A stretch of DNA of 64,000 nt from a virus (taxonomy: Duplodnaviria; Caudoviricetes): positions 1-64,000 of IMG/VR virus record IMGVR_UViG_3300012979_001162; one strand, written 5' to 3'. The notes below the pieces were generated by a model that ran no database searches, was not told the DNA's origin, and was given only the letters and a program-made list of their open reading frames with translations. Every line of letters starts with the position of its first letter. Position 1 is the stretch's first letter. Shown here piece by piece: positions 1 to 39,856 of this stretch. The position numbers were made by a program, and so were the translations under genes.

Positions 1-125
1 TCATTTAATTCCTCAATAGAATTTGCAAACAATGGTGTTTGCTGCAAGCTTTGAGTTTGTATGCTCAAAACATCTTCTTCGAGTTCTTCAATTCTATCAG
101 TTAAATCCACTTTCTCAGAAGAATG

Positions 126-154
126 TTGACCAAAAAGGATATAGTATATATAAT
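126..154 (+). promoter_or_regulatory. sigma-A-type promoter for the tyrosine recombinase
   Basis: TTGACC(126-131)-N17-TATAAT(149-154) upstream of GGAGG and ATG 212. Confidence 0.75.
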
Positions 155-211
155 ATTTTCGCAAACATGGAAGCAATTGCTTCTGATATTTTTTTATGGA
201 GGAAATGTTAT

Positions 212-1210
212 ATGTATGAACAAATGAGGAATGATTTTTTGACTGCACTTTCCAATGAGCAGAATGTGGATGTGGCGACGGCATTGAGAGTGTTGGACCA
301 AGTGGCAATGAATTATGAAATTAAACCTAAGGAAGTTGATATTATTGTCTTTGAGGGAGAGTTGCCAGAAATGGTGAGAACATATTTGATTTGCAAAAAA
401 ATGGCGGGACTTTCTGATGGAACGTTGGAAAATTATAAAATAATTTTAAGCGTATTTTTTAAAGAAATTAAGCGACTGCCCCAGTTTATTACTGCAAATG
501 AAATAAGAGAGTTTCTGTATACATATCAAGAGACAAAAGGTGTATCTCGTCGTACCATTGATAAATATAGAGAGTATATTACGCGATTCTTCACTTGGGC
601 ATATAACGAAGGGTATATTCCAGATAATCCCGCAAAAAATATAGCGGCAATTAAATACGAAGAGAAGCCACGAGAAGCGCTGACGCAAGTCGAGTTGGAA
701 TATTTGAGAATGGCTTGTGAAACGGTGCGTGAACGAGCAATTATAGAATTTCTATATAGCACTGGCGCAAGAGTGTCAGAACTTACGACTCTCAAAAAGT
801 CGGATATAAATTGGTATGAAAAATCTGTGCGTTTATTCGGTAAAGGCAGAAAACATAGAATTAGTTTTTTGAATGCTAAAGCTGAAGTTGCATTAATAAA
901 ATATCTTGAATCTAGGGATGATAATTGCGAATATTTATTTGTCTCTGTAAAGAAACCATATCAAAATCTTAGTAAAGATGCGATTGAAAAAATTGTGCGT
1001 AATATAGCTCGTAGAGCTTCAGTCAATATAGGAAAGCATATTACGCCGCATATCTTAAGACACACTACGGCAACAATGGCATTGCAAAGCGGAATGCCAA
1101 TTGCCGACATCAGTAAATTACTTGGTCACGAAAGTATTGATACGACAATGATATATGCAAAATCGTCGATCGAGGACGTGCGTTCGGGACATAAAAAACA
1201 CATTGTTTAA
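212..1210 (+). CDS. Tyrosine recombinase (XerC/D-like; possibly a DNA invertase)
   Basis: Catalytic set present: TGARVSE (R), GKGRK (K), HILRH, LGH, TTMIY. N-terminal SAM-like region. Start moved to ATG 212 behind GGAGG. Confidence 0.92.
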   Translation: MYEQMRNDFLTALSNEQNVDVATALRVLDQVAMNYEIKPKEVDIIVFEGELPEMVRTYLICKKMAGLSDGTLENYKIILSVFFKEIKRLPQFITANEIREFLYTYQETKGVSRRTIDKYREYITRFFTWAYNEGYIPDNPAKNIAAIKYEEKPREALTQVELEYLRMACETVRERAIIEFLYSTGARVSELTTLKKSDINWYEKSVRLFGKGRKHRISFLNAKAEVALIKYLESRDDNCEYLFVSVKKPYQNLSKDAIEKIVRNIARRASVNIGKHITPHILRHTTATMALQSGMPIADISKLLGHESIDTTMIYAKSSIEDVRSGHKKHIV

Positions 1211-4700: not shown

Positions 4701-5738
4701 CTTTGTGGACACGTCGATAATGTTCCTAGTTGGATTTTAAACAATGAGGGTTTATATATGCCGACTTCAGGAAGTATGCTTCAAGTCGGCAATTTTTCAC
4801 TGTATAATATAGAAAACACCGAAGGTTCTCTTACCACCTACTTTAAATCTAATGGAAGTTTTAAGATACAAGCATCAAGCGGAGCGTATATTGCCTTGGA
4901 TGATCAAACCGGCAACGAACCGCAAGAAATCCGTGTAAAGCTTTATTACGCATGTAGTGTAGGTGGTCGGGCTAATACATATATATACGCTCAAGCAGAT
5001 AAGGCTCCATACTATGATTTAACTGTTCAGGTTGAATGTAAGCGCTACGATATAAATGCCGATAGTGGCAATGAATATAATGTGCAAACAAATACGGTTG
5101 TTTTAACCATCAAGGCAAACGAAGAGCAATCTGACGAACAACTTGTGTTTGGCACAGCTAGTCCATATTTCGCTGTGCATAATACAACTACTAATCAGTG
5201 GAATACGGCACAACCGAAATATGATGGCGTGTATCAACAAATGAATTATTATAGCAAGACATACGTACAAAATCGGTCGGCAACAGATATAAAAATTCAA
5301 GGAAATTTAATTCCGTCGGAGAAGGGAAATTATAATTTAGGTCTTTCTGATTGTTATTGGAATGTTATTTATTCCAAAGATGGTACGGTTTCAGTTTCCG
5401 ACGGAAAGAAAAAGAATACCGTTCAATCCCTAGAGGATTCTTACGACTTAATTTTTGATTCATTAAAACCTGTTTCTTATAAGTTTAATGAAAATACTAG
5501 TAATAGAACCCATGTTGGATTCGTTGCACAGGATGTCAAGGATGCAGTTGAATTTTCTGGTTTAACAACCCAAGACTTTGCAGGATATTGCGAATGGGAA
5601 GAAAGCGATGGCGAGATTGGTTGCGGATTGCGTTATGGTGAATTTGTTTCTCTCAACACTTGGCAAATCCAAAAACTTAAATCTCGCGTATCCGAACTTG
5701 AGGCAAAACTAAAAGAACTTGCCGAAAAGAATAATTAA
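1734..5738 (+). CDS. Large tail fibre/spike protein with C-terminal intramolecular chaperone (peptidase S74-like)
   Basis: C-terminal SDGKKKN...LKPVSYKF...HVGFVAQDV...LRYGEF plus coiled coil; beta-repeat regions and a CBM-like insertion at ~4000-4495. Confidence 0.85.
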   Translation: MTEEIIDLIEENAAPIVNEMEIEITESIGWAAADTNMHSNLPDRNAPNQHLTSAITGLDEQLAQIKAPRVLYSNKSGVAHYYEWASGAYDEAGYFVSLVPGSSKIKICDGINIFGVTVEEAGFVGNQGTTGLRGNNYGLVATSGLVDVRCVSGINEGDYVVANASGLAEKTDSDCGYKVVSKATKDGTEYVSISLGVQACTTNLLGQRVGRLEVDLDAAELNIQAAMKLANDATAMAGASNITSNEAQDKINGVIDATNNALKDVNNSLKDIDEAKQAAKDAAYQADVVAKQAVDRANDALAKANAVEQDNQYILSRTEETAENYERLIGSIDKYSIGECSQSYGLTLEQARSILKPGMIYIPTESHKEIYWATIDGKGYSFEKEFTDGYYYRWHSRPFELTIDNGTKDISGYWWSEQIYGVWPSPIMLHGTSCAFWYDNSTLYNLETADWAKFNKSIWVESEAPTDAQYDYWFNNNVVESKSIDLTSGTETWMPYDTYIGETSPTENSYEFWYDGTSFYTHWFEVNTIVGNASNRISSMIRQDVDAITAEIVNAHGGVAGFGAWLTDTEAKANIGTFWADPASGEKNMANIGLVANDDGSSMSFVVRKTTKNDNGELESEDVVVSGAGITLNQNEEGSSILIEADCILIEGESIFKTENGQTFIDGGLIETGSIQADDITTGTLKSDGYIDGEVYSQTGTSFSLDNGTIKSQKFAVDEIGVLHARGADIEGTINATDGKIGQFTIKDGYMNLMVSGGGNLMDTILPPSGDRFTLDDYMRVYSFADAVDDAWKGYLEQGKTYTVVIDMMIDWNSEISTMNPSDVIRLYTAVSAREGMSSESNGVDLGCLTIQDTNQWQTVKYTFQFDYGDRFTTEDEYVAYLNEESGRKGLAIAPNPPMNATDCPINNLTIYDIKLFEGETTNEEGLVTSSHISDTMSWSITPDQCVWWNQDTTRQDPLMRLDKGGLYVRGEIESQLGYIGNISIQESGLCGHVDNVPSWILNNEGLYMPTSGSMLQVGNFSLYNIENTEGSLTTYFKSNGSFKIQASSGAYIALDDQTGNEPQEIRVKLYYACSVGGRANTYIYAQADKAPYYDLTVQVECKRYDINADSGNEYNVQTNTVVLTIKANEEQSDEQLVFGTASPYFAVHNTTTNQWNTAQPKYDGVYQQMNYYSKTYVQNRSATDIKIQGNLIPSEKGNYNLGLSDCYWNVIYSKDGTVSVSDGKKKNTVQSLEDSYDLIFDSLKPVSYKFNENTSNRTHVGFVAQDVKDAVEFSGLTTQDFAGYCEWEESDGEIGCGLRYGEFVSLNTWQIQKLKSRVSELEAKLKELAEKNN

Positions 5739-5750
5739 AAGGAGAAAGCT

Positions 5751-5963
5751 ATGCAACAGAAATCAATTATCCTCGAAATGGACGAGGCAAAAAGAGAATT
5801 AATACAATGCGCCAATAATATTATGCAGAAACACGGACTCAATTGTTATTTGATGGAGCCGGCGTTTGCAGAATTGTATGCCGAAGTTAAAGCCGAGGCC
5901 CAAAGAGAGTTGGTGCAGGCAAGACAAGCGGCGATGGCTGCTCAAACACCACAAAATGATTAA
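5751..5963 (+). CDS. Small hypothetical protein
   Basis: AAGGAG RBS, 70 aa, follows tail fibre. Confidence 0.7.
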   Translation: MQQKSIILEMDEAKRELIQCANNIMQKHGLNCYLMEPAFAELYAEVKAEAQRELVQARQAAMAAQTPQND

Positions 5964-5964
5964 A

Positions 5965-5988
5965 GAGGGGGCGGCAATAGTCGCCCTC
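5965..5988 (+). other. GC-rich intergenic hairpin (terminator or processing site)
   Basis: GAGGG..GGCGGC-AATA-GTCGCCCTC stem-loop without a clear U tract. Confidence 0.4.
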
Positions 5989-6022
5989 AGATAAATAATG
6001 AGAAAAAGGAGAAATAATTATT

Positions 6023-7153: not shown

Positions 7154-10100
7154 ATGGATAAAATTATTAGACATGGTTTGGAAATAGCGGCAGGCCTGGA
7201 TAAAGCGTCGAAAGACGAAATGATGAGGGCTGTTCGAGAGGTATTTACAGAGGGCGCTATTATAGATTTTCAAAATAAAGAAAACATTAGAGGTTTGCGC
7301 GAGTTTGCTAAAGTGTTTAAGAGCGTATTCGAAAGGGCAGGAAATAATACTATTGATTTTAATAAAATTATGGAACTGCCATCAGAGGATATGTTTAAGG
7401 AACTTGGAAGAATTGCAGCAACATCGTTTTGGGATGCATGGAATACAATTTCTAGCAGTAGCGGTGGCTTTGCAAGTGAGCGTAATAGAATTGAGGCGGA
7501 ATTTAATTCATTAATTCAGACGCAGAAGCAAAAAATGCAAGAACTTGAAGATTGGCAATCAAAACTAAGAAAGAAAAAAGATGCCGAACGTCGTTTGTAT
7601 TTTGACATGGCTACTAAAGAAAGGGTTTCATATAAGAGTAATGACGACTTAAAAACTAGGGCCAACACAGCATATAATGAATTTGATACTGTAAATTTCG
7701 AATTGCAAGAAGCTAAAGAAGCCGGGCGTGTTACCGAAAAGTTATTATCAAGATGGCGAGATGCGGCTACGGAAATAGTGAAAGTCAAAAATACAGTTGA
7801 TGAATTAAAATTTCAAGTCGTCCATAAAACCGTGAAAGACGGAGGTATTTTTGGTAAAACAAAATCGATTCCTCTTATCGAAGAAATATTAGGCAGTAGA
7901 ATGGCTGACTATTTTACATCCGAGATTGGTGGAGAAGGCTTGTCGGACGATCTTTTAATTGGAACATCTGCTATAGAAGATTTTGTAGATACTAAGGCAA
8001 TAACAGACAAAATCGGTGATATTCAACAAAGTTTGATTAAACTTGACAATCAAATAGCTGATATGTCCGCGAATTATCCTGATTTGGTTGATAAGCAGAA
8101 GGTAACAGAAGCCGAGGAAGCAATTGATAGGGTATCAGCAGCATATGATAGATTATTGGTTAAATCTGGTAGCAATAAAGGGAAACTCAAAGCAAAGGCT
8201 TTAAAAGATATACAGTCTGCGATAGATTATTCTCCTAAATCTGCTGGCAACTTTGCAGTTTCGGATGATATGTCTGAAGCAAAAATAAAAAGCATCAGCG
8301 AAAAGGAACAAAAAGCATATGCGCAATTAAAGTCTTTGGCTGAATCTTATGCTCACTCAGAGGGGAGTTCTTGGGAACAACGTGCACAATACTTGTTAAA
8401 ATTTATTAAAGAATATGAGGCGCAGGTTAATAATCCAACACTATCTCATGAATTGACTAGTAGTCTGGCAAGTCTATATAAAGAACTGAAGCCAATTGAA
8501 GAAAGTACTAAAACAATGCTTCAGAATGTTGTTAATATGGCAAATAACGTTCCGGAAATTGGTATAGATGGCTCCGGTTCTGGCGCAGAAACTGGTGATG
8601 GTACCGGCTCCGGAGATGCATCTTCTTCTGAAACAGAGAACCTTCGTCAGCAACTTGAAGAGGCTAACAGAAAACGCAAAGAAGCAGAATTAGCAGAGCG
8701 TGTTGCACAAGAGAACGCTACCGCCGAAAGACACGCAACAGAAGAAGCAGAAGAGAGAGCCGAGATGTATCGCCGCGCGATGGATAGCATGCAAGAAGAG
8801 ATGGCGGATCTTCGTGGGCAGTTGGCGGATGCAGGTAGTGGTAGTGGAGATGGTTCTGGTGGTACTCCAGAATTAGAACGGGTTGCGAAAACAATTGAAG
8901 AAAAAAGAAACGTATTAGAAGAACTTCAGAAAAAAGTGAATAAAAGCCTTGAAGATCAAGGCACAAATATGTATGTGGCAACGCAAGAACAACTTGATAA
9001 AGCAAAACAAATATTATCCGAGTACGAGAAAATTCTTGTAAAGACGGCTGGTGGTAAGAACTTAACTCTTGGCCCAGATATGTCTAACCAAGATTTAATG
9101 AAATTCCTCGGTATGGATGCTCAAAAGGCTAAGAATGTTGAATTTACTAGGAAGGCTGGTATTGGCACAGGTGCTTCCAGAGATAATCGTACCGAGGAAG
9201 ATGTCGAGAATGCTCGCAAGGTTGCCGAATACGAGGCTCAGGCAAGAGCTGAAGCAGAGGCAAAAGCGAAAGCAGAAAAAGAAGCACGAGAAGAAGCAGA
9301 ACGGCAGGCCCAGGCAGAAAAAGAAAAAGAAGAGAGTCTTAAGAGACAAAGGGCCGCAGAAGAACGGATTGCAAAAGCTAAAGAGAGAACCGCGAAGGCT
9401 GCCGCAGAAAAAGCAGCGTCTGAAGAAAAGACAAAAGCGTTAATATTAGAGCAAAAACAGGCTCTTTTAGAAATGCTCGGAATGTCGAATGAAGCCGGGC
9501 TCTTCTTTGATTCCAAAACGGGAGAGATAAGTGATATTGTTGAGGGCGGCGCACATAGCGTAGAAACCACATCGGGAGCATGGAATAAAGCATCTACTCA
9601 ATATGACGGACGTCTTCATTCACACAATTATGATGTTGCCGCCCCTAGTTTTAGTGGAAAAGATAATGATTTTGCTGTATGGCTTAAAGGATTCGATTAT
9701 ATTAAAAAACAAATGATCCTTGCCAACAAAGAACTCTTGTCTTTTGATTTTTCATCAATTAGCCGTGAGACATTAAGACATATTGCGGCTTTGTATTCGA
9801 AGGCGGCAAGAGAAATTGATAAAGAGTTTGATGGTTATGTTAAAAATGGTCAAGTCGGCGAAAAGTTTGGCACGCTTGATAACTGGGATGAGCAGTTTCA
9901 GGCTCGCCTAAGAGATGCTCTGAATTCCATTATGGAGAAGTCGGAGTATGCTGGAATTATGACCTCTCAGCAACTTCCACAAGATATTATTGACACACAC
10001 AGAGAACAGCTTGCTAAGAATCAAGCCAAAGTTGCCAAGAAGCCTAATGCTGCAGATGGCATGTCTTTGGCGGATGAGTATGAGCGAGCCAATGATGAAG

Positions 10101-12517
10101 TGAAAGAACTAATTAAACAACTCGCAGTTCTTTATAGCACATATGATGATAGTTTTGTTGGCGATACAGAAGAAGATCCAATTATGGCGCTTGAGGAAAG
10201 GTTGCGGAACTTGCGACCAGATCTTGCAAAAATTGAAGCGTCGCAATTCGAAGATCTTGCTAAGACGTTAACGTCAGAAGAACAATCTACTATTCTTGCA
10301 CAAATTAAAAGCGAAGCAGCAGCCACAGAACAAGCGGTAGATGGATTAAATGAGAGTTTGGAGAAAACTCAACAATTGGCATCTAATGATGGCGCTGGAG
10401 CGGGCACGGGTGACGCCTCTCTTTCTGAACTTGAAGTAGAAAGGGGAAAGGCAGAATCTCTTCAAAATGAGATTGAGCAGAAAAATTCTGCACTTCAAGC
10501 GGCCAATGAAGAAAAACAAGCACTACAAAATGATTTAGACACAACTAGACAGCAACTTGTAGACTCGGAACATGAGAAATCTCTATATGATTCCGCAATG
10601 AATCAACTTACTGAAGAATCTGATGCTAAGGATAGGGTAATTTATGACCTTCGTGAGCAGCTATCAAATGGTGGTGACGCTATATTTACCGCAGAACAAC
10701 GTGCAAACGAAGCAGAGGAAAGAGCAAGTAATCTGGAGCGTAAACTTGCAGAATCATTTGATGGCGATAAGAAACAAGGGTCTGTTAATACCGAAGAACT
10801 TAAGACGCTTCTTAATTCGATTGTGTATAATGTCAAGATTGTGCATGACGATAATGACAAGACGGCAAATAAGATTGCGCTTGATGATTCTACTCTTGAG
10901 ACAACTTTGACTAAGGTTTTTGCGAACATTCTGAATCCTCAAACACAACAAAATGATTCCGAGCAGAAACAATCGTCTTGGGCACTTGAAAGCACATTAC
11001 AAACCGTTAAAGGTGTTCTTGATAACATTCATACGAATACTACCAAGATTGGAAGTTTTAATACTTCCAACGTTGATGCAATAGCAGGAACAGCTCTTGA
11101 TGGCAGGCTTACTGAAATAAGGTCTGTTTTGGAGTCTATTGACAACAAGATTGCTAAAGGCGGCGTTATTGCGACAAGAGGAGCCGTTAAGCAGGCAAAT
11201 GCTCAACCCATAGAATCCGAAGCGAAAACTCAGGCCGCTCGCTCCAATATGCTAAAGTCGCTTATCAACGATTATAAGACTCTTGGTAAGTTATCTGCGC
11301 AGTTTTCAAACGATGGAAATCTTGAAACACAAGCAATGCTCAAAAATCTCAAAGAAGAGATTGCTAGAAAGAGACAGTCGTTAAATATTACGATGGATGA
11401 AAACAGGAGCCTGAGGGAGAAATATAGCATAGCATTTGATGCCGAAAAGAGATTGTTGGATGCCGCGAAGGCACAGGCAAAGATAAATGAAGACAACAGA
11501 GACGACAAGACAGCTTGGAAAAAGAAGGTTAAAGACGCACAGAGAGCAATGGGGGTTAATGCGGCAACAAGTGCAGTTAATGCAGGTGATCAAACTGTAT
11601 TGCGAGCCATTGGAACCGAGGGTGTTTCACAAGATATTGCGAATAAAGCTAAAGAATTATCAGATCAGATTAAGACGTTACGTGTATTACGTGATGAAAT
11701 TGACAAGAAGGGCGAAAAAGCATCTGATGAAGATAGAGATAATCTAAGTAAACAGATATCTAAGGTTAAAGAGCTGAAGACTGAGGTTGATGGTTATCTG
11801 AAGATTCACGAAAAGTATAGCGGTGATAATGTAACTGATCTTGGCGATGCAAGCAATTTTGGGGCCGTTGGTACTGATCAGTATTGGAATAATATTACTG
11901 CGGCAATTAAGAAAGCCCAATCTGGCAAGATGACCATTAAGGGGCTTAATGCGGATACAGGCGAATTGACTGGTACAACCAAGATAGCTGCGAATACTTT
12001 TGCAACCTGGAGCGCGACGGTTGATCCGCTTACGGGCAGACTGAGTATGTTGCGTACCGGAATTAAGAAGACGGAGACACTGGTTGAGATCATCACCCGT
12101 AAAACAAAGGAAATTTTTACGTACTTTAGTGGTTCGAGTATTATTTTCAAGGCATTTAATGAGCTCAAGAAGGGCGTTCAGTATGTAAGAGATATTGACC
12201 TTGCGCTGACTGAGCTTAAGAAGGTAACAGATGAAACAGAAGAAACTTACAGGAAATTTTTAGATACTGCGTCTAAGACTGCGGCAAAAGTTGGTAGTAC
12301 GATTAAGGATGTTATTAGTTCTACTGCCGACTGGGCCCGTTTGGGATACAGTATGAAAGAAGCTGCGGAATTTGCAGAATCTACACAAATTTTAATGAAT
12401 GTCAGTGAATTTACTGATGTTTCTCAGGCAACAGATACGTTAATTTCTGCGGTACAAGCTTTTGGGTATACCGCAGAAACATCAATGGATGTTGTAGATT
12501 TGCTTAATACAATAGGT
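7154..12517 (+). CDS. Tape measure protein, exon 1 (1788 codons)
   Basis: C-terminal part is the phage minor-tail/TMP domain (DIDLALTELKKVTDE...ADWARLGYS...DLLNTIG); exon ends in U at a P1 U-G pair. Confidence 0.9.
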
Positions 12518-37873: not shown

Positions 37874-39856
37874 TTAAAACACCGTTTTCTTATAACTTAT
37901 ATCTCCAATCCACAATCCTATGCTTTCCGCAATCTTGAATATAACATCATTGTTGCCTTCCCATCTGGTATAGCCTATAACATTGTTGCCTATCAGAACA
38001 CGCTCAAGCTCCTTGACGTCTGCTATTAGTTTGTAGCCACGATTCATTGGGTTTCTTTGTATAATACCTTGCTCAAGCAATTCTTCTTTTACTATTTTTG
38101 ATAAGCTTTCAAATGTTAATTTTATCCCCTGCTCTCTCATATAGAACGCAGCATTTCTTGTTACAATCTTTTCTGGATCTTTTAGTATGAATTCGTATAA
38201 TAGTTCTTTAATTTTGCGTATTTTTGATGCGCCAACCTTAAAGTAATTATTGCATAAATCATGTAGGTTGCCTTTTAGATATATATCTAGTCCGCCATCT
38301 TCATATACATTAATTTTGTCTACTAACATCAACACTTGCTTTTTAGTAATTTGTTGCGTTGTAAGAACATTATTTATTATGCTAATAGCGCCATTTAAGT
38401 TTTTTCTAACTTCTATTTCATCTATCGCTATATTTTGCATATCTGCAATTTGTTGTTCTAATACTTTTATTTCTGCGTATTTTTCATTTTGAATATCATT
38501 ATATATTTTGTTGATGCTATCTATTGAACCTGGATTTTCCATTATTTCATAGTTTTTTTGTTCTATAAGTATTTTAACTGCTTGTTGCACTCTATCTAAT
38601 TTATTTATAAGTTGCTGAATGTTATCACTACAGTCTACTCTATTAGACATTTCTGACTGTATAATTTGGTCAATGTCTTTAAGAACATTCATTAGGTTAT
38701 TTTTGCAATGTTCTAAAAATTCCAATAAAGCTTCGGTTAGGTTTGACTCTGTTATACTGTGACTTGTGCACACTGATGTGCCGTATATGTTGTACGCCTT
38801 GCACACATATCTAGTGTTACTGCCACCATTTGCTGATGTCAGCCTTGTTCCACAATCCGCACAATATAGCAATCCGGCAAATATATTTGGTCGCGTTTGA
38901 TTTTTCTTGCCTCGATAATGTTCCACCGTTCTTGATTTAATAATTTCTTGTACAAGCTTAAATGTCGGTTCGTCTATTATCGGCTCGTGATGATGCTTAA
39001 ATACATGTTGGTCTTCTTTGGGCACTGGAACCTGCTTTCCATTAATTGCCCTGTTTTTATATTTACCTAGCGTTAATGTGCCGATATAAAAATCATTATT
39101 TAACATTTGCTGTATAGCCTTGATGTCCCATTTGGTAGTTGCCTTTCTTTTGCTTACTCCACCCCTTGCCTCCGTATATTGCTTTTTTATCATTGCTGGT
39201 GTAGGTATATTTCTTTCTGTTAATTCTCTTGCTATAAGCTTCACTCCCATTCCACTTATATACATATCGAATATTTGTTTTACATATGGAGCAACCATTG
39301 GATCTACGGAATATTTGCTTTTGTCATAATGGTCTTTGACATAGCCATAAGGCACACTAATAACACACGAACCGTCCTTTTGGGCAGAAGCAAGACTTTT
39401 TCTGATTTTTTTGCTCGTTTCAACTACATATCGTTCGTTCATCCAAATTCTTATGCCGACCATATCGTGTGTTGACTCATCTAATGTGTCATAATTATCA
39501 CCAGGCGCGATAACTCTTTTGCCTGTTTCCAATATATTTTCTAGGAATAATTGAACCTTTGGTGAATGCCTTCCTATTCTAGATAAGTCTTTCACAATAA
39601 TCAAATCTACCTTGTTGTCATTTAAATCTTTTTTTAATTGATTAAAATCCGGTCTATCCATAGTGTATCCGCTATAACCGTCGTCTACATAGAACTTGGT
39701 AATGATAATTCCATTTTCTTTTGCATATTGTTCTATAATCTTTCTTTGGTTACTTATGCTCGTACTTTCCTTGTCGTCACCGTCTTCAATTGATAGCCTT
39801 AGATAGGACACACCCTCTTTTATTTCTTTGATTGGATATATTTTTCCTTTTTGCAT
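37874..39856 (-). CDS. Large serine recombinase (resolvase, recombinase, Zn-ribbon) with C-terminal extension
   Basis: YLRLS catalytic motif, DDGYSG..RP, KDLSRIGR, PYGY, HEPIID, LLYCADCG. Confidence 0.92.
   Translation of the reverse strand: MQKGKIYPIKEIKEGVSYLRLSIEDGDDKESTSISNQRKIIEQYAKENGIIITKFYVDDGYSGYTMDRPDFNQLKKDLNDNKVDLIIVKDLSRIGRHSPKVQLFLENILETGKRVIAPGDNYDTLDESTHDMVGIRIWMNERYVVETSKKIRKSLASAQKDGSCVISVPYGYVKDHYDKSKYSVDPMVAPYVKQIFDMYISGMGVKLIARELTERNIPTPAMIKKQYTEARGGVSKRKATTKWDIKAIQQMLNNDFYIGTLTLGKYKNRAINGKQVPVPKEDQHVFKHHHEPIIDEPTFKLVQEIIKSRTVEHYRGKKNQTRPNIFAGLLYCADCGTRLTSANGGSNTRYVCKAYNIYGTSVCTSHSITESNLTEALLEFLEHCKNNLMNVLKDIDQIIQSEMSNRVDCSDNIQQLINKLDRVQQAVKILIEQKNYEIMENPGSIDSINKIYNDIQNEKYAEIKVLEQQIADMQNIAIDEIEVRKNLNGAISIINNVLTTQQITKKQVLMLVDKINVYEDGGLDIYLKGNLHDLCNNYFKVGASKIRKIKELLYEFILKDPEKIVTRNAAFYMREQGIKLTFESLSKIVKEELLEQGIIQRNPMNRGYKLIADVKELERVLIGNNVIGYTRWEGNNDVIFKIAESIGLWIGDISYKKTVF

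Follow-up and report, generated by a model that had tools for sequence, protein, structure and literature searches.

The Gin/G-segment system of phage Mu, Cin of P1 and Min of p15B use serine invertases with a Fis-dependent enhancer. In the R64 plasmid shufflon, Rci works with sfx sites on pilV of the conjugative type IV pilus, with seven sites and four segments. The Rin shufflon of Bifidobacterium breve and B. longum prophages is built from a tyrosine invertase at its flank, 11-bp rix sites, a constant segment (Rc) and Rv cassettes (Mavrich et al. 2018, PMC6109161). Prophages of Eggerthella lenta are reported to have comparable systems (PMC8778435), and gene-altering inversions beside tyrosine recombinases have been catalogued broadly (PMC9881135). 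A shufflon in a BV01-like Phocaeicola vulgatus phage has 10-bp directional motifs, and its activity is seen in reads (PMC13596623, 2026 preprint). Here we analyse the beginning of IMG/VR record IMGVR_UViG_3300012979_001162, where a start-less coding cassette adjoins a tyrosine recombinase gene. This locus is very probably one end of a tyrosine-recombinase inversion switch of the Rin type for a tail-fibre protein. The window comprises bases 1-64000 of G000:C1, a linear 162,648-bp virus contig rated 95% complete, from an uncultured cattle-gut phage (rumen, Clostridia-type) whose genome is probably ~170 kb.

The minus strand of window positions 3-308 is a single open frame that exits at position 1, and its translation from position 131 downward is GQHSSEKVDLTDRIEELEEDVLSIQTQSLQQTPLFANSIEELN. 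Position 1 is also the contig end; the cassette thus leaves the contig and not merely the window. From the cassette up to the first base of the recombinase gene (212), the frame contains no ATG. It does contain TTG codons, at 176-174 and 164-162, but neither has a Shine-Dalgarno-like sequence ahead of it. The original prediction had described an open, protein-like minus-strand frame at 1-132 that lacks an ATG and a ribosome-binding site (RBS) and is directed away from an intact tyrosine recombinase amid tail genes. The translation agrees exactly with the one quoted there, the lack of a start is correct in substance, and the catalytic motifs, Pfam match and tail neighbours of the recombinase agree with the remainder. 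The prediction also placed the affected gene upstream of the window. A constant head for such a gene does exist, but it lies at the opposite end of the contig, since position 1 is a contig end.

At that opposite end (L002), the plus strand carries AAAGGAG-N8-ATG followed by 50 codons (MKIMRVKQQDGTLVDIPIGVDTASSAVSAHNTSTSAHADIREEISQLSSE), which form a constant head, Rc, at G000:C1:162498-162648. Rc starts MKIMRVKQQDG...ADIREEISQLSSE, has its own ATG and AAAGGAG RBS, and by itself has no family match. It terminates at the final base of the site core: the contig finishes ...TAGTCAACTTTCTTCTGAGA, with the site GTCAACTTTCTTCTGAGA (GTCAAC-T-TTCTTCTGAGA). The 18-mer at window 130-113 (GTCAACATTCTTCTGAGA) recurs in inverted orientation, at 17 of 18 bases, as the terminal 18 nt of the contig (G000:C1:162631-162648). 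This end copy is the only further copy at ≤1 mismatch in the 162,648-bp contig, where ~2e-4 copies are expected by chance. The 11-nt core has two exact copies in the contig, inverted relative to each other, and both arms read it as T|TCT TCT GAG|A, or Ser-Ser-Glu, in the same frame. A crossover site had been predicted at ~110-135, with a quasi-palindrome, TTCTCAGAA (window 112-120), beside the recombinase -35. Both proposals hold up: the site is located at 105-130 with its core at 113-123, its in-frame inverted partner lies within a properly started gene head, and the outer arm of the site shares bases with the -35 hexamer. The G000 recombinase-proximal site would consist of imperfect inverted 10-mers (7/10) that flank a 6-bp centre, a dif-like arrangement that would suit an Xer-like enzyme. 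A possible third site near window 15-30 has a core similarity of only ~11/15 and was dropped as unsupported.

The complete locus is present in three related contigs, IMG/VR contigs L003 and L004 and one from bovine gut, which link sequences corresponding to the two G000 ends through a 3.9-4.1-kb segment with inverted sites. In these relatives a constant head and a first site are followed by cassette A and an inverted cassette B, and then by the second site and the recombinase. These spanning relatives imply that the G000 contig ends are neighbours, with a ~4-kb invertible segment between them. In L003, the constant head Rc' and its site occupy 5685-5997 within a 558-aa plus-strand gene, whose N-terminal 104 aa finish with ..TEQISQLSSEK at the site (5978-5997). 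A 168-aa open reading frame (ORF) comes next on the plus strand, behind the cassette A' gene. The minus-strand cassette B' (669 aa, Metallophos) follows, and the inverted site (9906-9925) is in its head, ..FSSSLSSEIEE... A distance of 3,908 nt separates the arms, and the recombinase begins at 10001. Only two sites occur in L003 and L004. A TnpB/IS605 OrfB-type gene (Cas12f-like TNB domain) also lies in the L003 tail-fibre region (L003:83-1222). The bovine-gut contig (X4 record 23, a 12,983-bp Logan contig) has Rc and its site with a 30-nt overhang identical to the G000 right end, and window 105-130 is matched in inverted orientation at record 1902-1927. Sequence from window 109 onward, including the recombinase, resumes at record 6019, ~4.1 kb past the first site. 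In both L003 and the X4 contig, cassette heads diverge as soon as the site ends. The Logan contigs came from bovine-gut runs and contained at most 0.33 of the sampled words; minority orientations are not visible in such contigs.

Site conservation among these phages is uneven along its length. C-W-TTCTTCTGAGA is invariant across the four aligned arms of G000 and L003. The constant-head arms of both phages additionally share AAATTAGTCAAC, though the heads are otherwise unrelated; over 24 nt of the site, the two phages are identical. The inner arm is poorly conserved in L003, a trait it shares with the sfx sites of Rci. An 18-mer exact-pattern scan of IMG/VR returned seven contigs, of which L003 and L004 alone are relevant; the other five were taken as chance matches, three within an N4-like virion RNA polymerase gene and two in unrelated genes. 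When metagenomes were scanned with the recombinase, one relative (89%) came up, on a contig of 1.9 kb that begins just 44 nt upstream of the gene and is therefore uninformative. Scans of IMG/VR with the 50-aa Rc and with two proteins described below (P0002 and P0050) gave no useful relatives, and neither the locus nor Rc nor cassette B was matched by GenBank phages at DNA or protein level.

The 50-aa head was also searched against 5.8 billion proteins, and longer proteins were inspected. P0002 (778 aa, ENA, from an independently assembled 130,393-bp contig) begins with G000 Rc (residues 1-50, 50/50 identical), and its residues 46-87 match the window minus strand at 128-3 in 41 of 42 positions, with the two parts fused in frame at Ser-Ser-Glu. 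The sole difference, Leu versus His, comes from a polymorphic base that stays with the outer flank. The G000 cassette B head is identical to P0002 residues 51-87. P0002 then proceeds into a ~690-aa body with a weak MpaA match, and a search with this body gave 225 homologues, many with PF00246 Peptidase_M14. One of these homologues, P0050 (JGI, 730 aa), opens with LRKYYIYYILFGQHSSE, the exact G000 stub, and continues into a different, intact M14 cassette. Cassette B thus has alternative arrangements, Rc-B in P0002 versus stub-B in G000, at protein level and in separate assemblies. The silent (stub plus cassette) and expressed (head plus cassette) junctions of this system thus both exist in nature. 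The stub would take the place of the constant head in the silent state, and cassette B, when expressed, would continue as a ~730-aa M14-peptidase-like module. The head fused to this cassette in P0002 and the layout in the relatives support the earlier proposal that receptor-binding C-termini are swapped, with the adjacent recombinase as the presumed catalyst.

We propose that the switch would operate as follows. Rc ends in the site described above, and the inverted copy at window 130-113 heads the start-less cassette beside the recombinase. The ~4 kb or more between the sites should carry the bodies of two opposed C-terminal cassettes. The recombinase would exchange strands inside the shared core TCT TCT GAG, and the segment would flip. 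Whichever cassette faces Rc would be translated as Rc-SSE-cassette, and the other would sit behind the untranslatable stub. A phage population would then hold alternative fibre tips and thus alternative receptor or surface-polymer specificities. The contig boundaries fit this proposal: G000:C1 halts at the last base common to the alternative continuations, and a branch in a de Bruijn graph would yield such a stop, which is suggestive but not proof. Loss of a ~4-kb segment from the assembly agrees with the 5% estimated to be missing.

Several observations weigh against an active switch. Evidence for flipping consists of contigs and proteins of separate assemblies, not of read-level orientations within one sample. 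The segment interior, and hence the second G000 cassette, is absent from the assembly. Both cassettes might share the same 112-nt head, in which case P0002 versus G000 would by itself be no proof of a flip. The L003 lineage is seen in one state, with the Rc'+A' protein on 16 contigs and no Rc'+B' fusion found in L003-type phages. Finally, the closest recombinase found in a genome scan, which is 64% identical and lies on L177 (Lachnospiraceae metagenome-assembled genome (MAG) contig JBGVKZ010000055.1, 159,749 bp), follows three consecutive tail-fibre genes (791, 683 and 876 aa) with no crossover site or inverted cassette at the recombinase, so that adjacency alone is no proof of an invertase role. 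These last two observations, together with the L003 recombinase-proximal arm that is degenerate outside a 13-nt core, would also suit a fossil or locked rearrangement, in which a past inversion or module capture no longer flips and the recombinase serves integration or dimer resolution. If the locus were such a fossil, however, it would be difficult to see why start-less cassettes of 669-730 codons are wholly open in L003 and P0050 unless they are expressed from time to time. The G000 cassette is found in both types of junction, the G000 contig breaks precisely at the core, and other recombinases in the genome could serve integration. We consider a locked locus improbable.

Strain differences that arose by module exchange are a less probable explanation still, and a very unlikely one. 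The junctions would then not stem from one inversion but from a shared cassette head or from recombination, homologous or illegitimate, at a hinge that is conserved. A hinge of the form ..AHADIRE.I.QLSSE does precede many unrelated C-termini in many phages, and the loose ends of X2 and X4 show that the heads of cassettes form a mosaic from sample to sample. Exchange of this kind accounts poorly for a stub junction that lies 82 nt from the recombinase gene and carries an in-frame inverted copy of the Rc site, for a polymorphic base that remains in the outer flanks, where crossover within the core would leave it, and for three related contigs that hold two opposed cassettes between inverted sites. 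It is extremely unlikely that window 1-112 was misjoined to the recombinase flank across a short repeat during assembly: the junction is at a contig end and no other compared contig has exactly this head on this flank past position 97-110, but the shared sequence of 11-26 nt is shorter than the k-mers that assemblers normally use, P0050 provides an independent instance of the stub-plus-cassette junction, and the same junction type is present in L003, L004, X2 and X4 contigs.

An inversion switch at this locus raises the question of what is switched. Among 27 proteins with the Rc motif, 24 bear the SSE junction, mostly as the hinge motif given above. N-terminal parts ahead of the hinge range from 35 to 450 aa, and the C-termini after it are unrelated; M14-like, metallophosphoesterase, BNR/sialidase and SGNH tips are among them. 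In many phages of the rumen and gut, the hinge thus connects N-terminal anchors and enzyme-like tips that are each unrelated from one protein to the next. P0019, which has the junction motif, matches tail-fibre PHROGs upstream of the hinge; the hinge is therefore a module boundary of tail fibres, with the crossover core at its 3' end. The switched target also appears to be a tail fibre or receptor-binding protein, because of the P0019 match and the flanking tail fibre/spike and tape-measure-like genes. The cassette B family has 225 matches that form ~730-aa modules with a zinc-carboxypeptidase (M14, MpaA-like) domain, located at P0002 residues ~560-700, and these modules are joined to many phage N-termini, including collagen-like and fibre repeats. 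The substrate of the M14 module might, as a guess, be the peptidoglycan stem peptide or poly-gamma-glutamate. A broader idea, which we regard as unlikely, is that the conserved hinge (..HNTSTSAHADIRE.ISQLSSEK) site and an Xer-like recombinase not only flip a segment within one genome but also form a docking point for trade of receptor-binding modules between co-infecting phages, and that the recombinase throttles itself since its -35 lies in the site.

The presumed invertase has a Pfam Phage_integrase match (1.6e-35) and SAM-like N-terminal (core-binding) domains, and the motifs ARVSE, GKGRKHR, HILRH, GHES and IY(315)AK are all found. The best NCBIfam models are of XerA/XerC/XerD type (NF040815, 228.8 bits, with its cut-off at 220); the runners-up, the models for XerC and XerD, stay below their own cut-offs. 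The protein fits a simple Xer-like class with a core-binding and a catalytic domain and without an arm-binding domain. L003 and L004 have homologues of 86% identity at the corresponding position next to the inverted site, and the closest cultured-phage integrases (from Terrisporobacter and Clostridium phages) are just 33-37% identical. The -35 hexamer of the predicted promoter (Table 1) overlaps GTTGAC in the outer arm of the crossover site. A leader hairpin may limit the amount of recombinase by attenuation. Promoter/site overlap and the hairpin together suggest low, self-limited recombinase expression through autoregulation or attenuation.

Table 1. Features at the recombinase-proximal end of the proposed switch, in window coordinates.
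Feature	Position	Strand	Details
Silent start-less C-terminal cassette B, head	1..112	-	37 codons plus a partial codon; exits contig end
Crossover site, recombinase-proximal pair of arms (IR-R)	105..130	-	GTCAACATTC-TTCTGA-GAAAGTGGAT; core TTCTTCTGAGA at 123-113
Predicted sigma-70-type promoter of the recombinase	126..154	+	TTGACC-17-TATAAT; consensus scan 11/12
Fixed flank, site to recombinase	131..211	.	Minus: untranslatable stub (..LRKYYIYYILFGQH); plus: recombinase leader
Terminator-like hairpin and T-run in recombinase leader	168..194	+	Pattern match
Xer-like tyrosine recombinase, presumed invertase	212..1210	+	332 aa; RBS GGAGG at 199-203

Other recombinases are encoded elsewhere in the genome. 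These include a 660-aa large serine recombinase (XisF/Ccr-like) at window 37874-39856 (minus strand), a second Xer-like tyrosine recombinase of 328 aa at G000:C1:83787-84299 (minus strand) and a 124-aa resolvase-like ORF at G000:C1:86387-86692 (minus strand). PF00239 matches in G000 occur only at C1:39371-39811 and 86387-86692. With these other enzymes available, integration or resolution need not depend on the enzyme at 212-1210. Just upstream of Rc lie two genes (L002:9548-10666 and 10679-11782; G000:C1:160196-162430). One encodes 372 aa and is 45% identical to fibre protein P0028 of a related phage, and the other encodes a 367-aa metallophosphoesterase; both are 'fixed' examples of fibre-like or enzyme kinds that are seen as switchable cassettes in relatives. 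Downstream of the recombinase, one gene encodes a tail fibre/spike protein of 1334 aa that has a Peptidase_S74 chaperone domain, and another a tape-measure-like protein.

More distant recombinase relatives have a comparable setting. Clade members at 43-49% identity lie within ~200 nt of one inverted-repeat arm, with the other arm in the upstream tail gene. Upstream of a 49%-identical recombinase, L006:8851-9853 holds two facing frames, both without starts. An inverted repeat of 19 nt, TACTCAACTAAATGGCAAA, is present without mismatch in both frames and encodes S(T/L)TQLNGKS; the frames examined did not include a constant head. In 16 phage contigs from human gut (L007-L021, L029, L032, L062), the 3' end of a tail gene is hypervariable over 276-871 nt and is enclosed by two inverted copies of TTAATGAATTAAAT, which encodes INELN, ~200 nt upstream of a 43-45%-identical recombinase at ~9995. 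The inverted 14-mers are conserved and the interiors wholly different; a second cassette would not fit, and no relative inversion of the segment was seen among the 16 contigs. L177, which falls in the size class of the present phage, is binned with a Lachnospiraceae MAG, a possible host clue.

If the locus is a switch, tyrosine-recombinase tail-fibre switches that were first described from small actinobacterial prophages reach large (~170-kb) uncultured rumen phages. Instead of small binding domains, their cargo here would be complete tips with enzyme modules (M14-peptidase-like, metallophosphoesterase, deacetylase-like), which points to switching between cell-surface polymers as receptors or substrates. 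For viromics, the two ends of this contig and its 95% completeness would be a direct outcome of the switch. Contig breaks at short inverted sites beside a recombinase could flag such switches and explain missing receptor-binding genes.

Comparison with known systems places the locus most closely with Rin. As with Gin, Cin and Min, the constant 5' tail-fibre part lies outside the segment and alternative 3' parts are opposed inside it, and a small accessory ORF accompanies one cassette in L003, as in Mu U/U'. Unlike in those systems, a tyrosine recombinase adjoins the segment, and the G000 serine recombinases are 38 and 86 kb away. The R64 Rci system shares a tyrosine recombinase, short asymmetric sites with one arm and the core well conserved, and swapped adhesin C-termini. 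It differs in being a plasmid system for a pilus-tip adhesin, whereas the present locus is in a phage genome with tail genes and its recombinase matches Xer-type models best. The original label of an Rci-type shufflon stands for the inversion layout, but relatives that span the locus have only two sites and one segment, and the recombinase is Xer-like. In the BV01-like phage, a recombinase-flanked invertible region likewise overlaps the distal end of a tail-fibre gene; that region has three small cassettes in 1.7 kb, six isoforms and a Bacteroidota host, in contrast to one ~4-kb segment with two large cassettes here. The likeness to Rin is one of layout. In both, a phage tyrosine recombinase is at one flank, a constant N-terminal segment Rc at the other and start-less cassettes between, a short (11-bp class) asymmetric crossover repeat that is rare elsewhere in the genome heads each cassette, and the target is a receptor-binding tail protein. 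Rin has several cassettes and rix sites, whereas two sites are seen here, and its core is TTCCCTAACCC versus TTCTTCTGAGA. Rin occurs in ~40-kb actinobacterial prophages, whereas the present phage is a rumen Clostridia-type phage of ~170 kb with cassettes that are very large enzyme-like modules (~450-730 aa). The case would add a large rumen phage to a known kind of switch, with one ~4-kb segment as far as shown and a promoter that overlaps the site.

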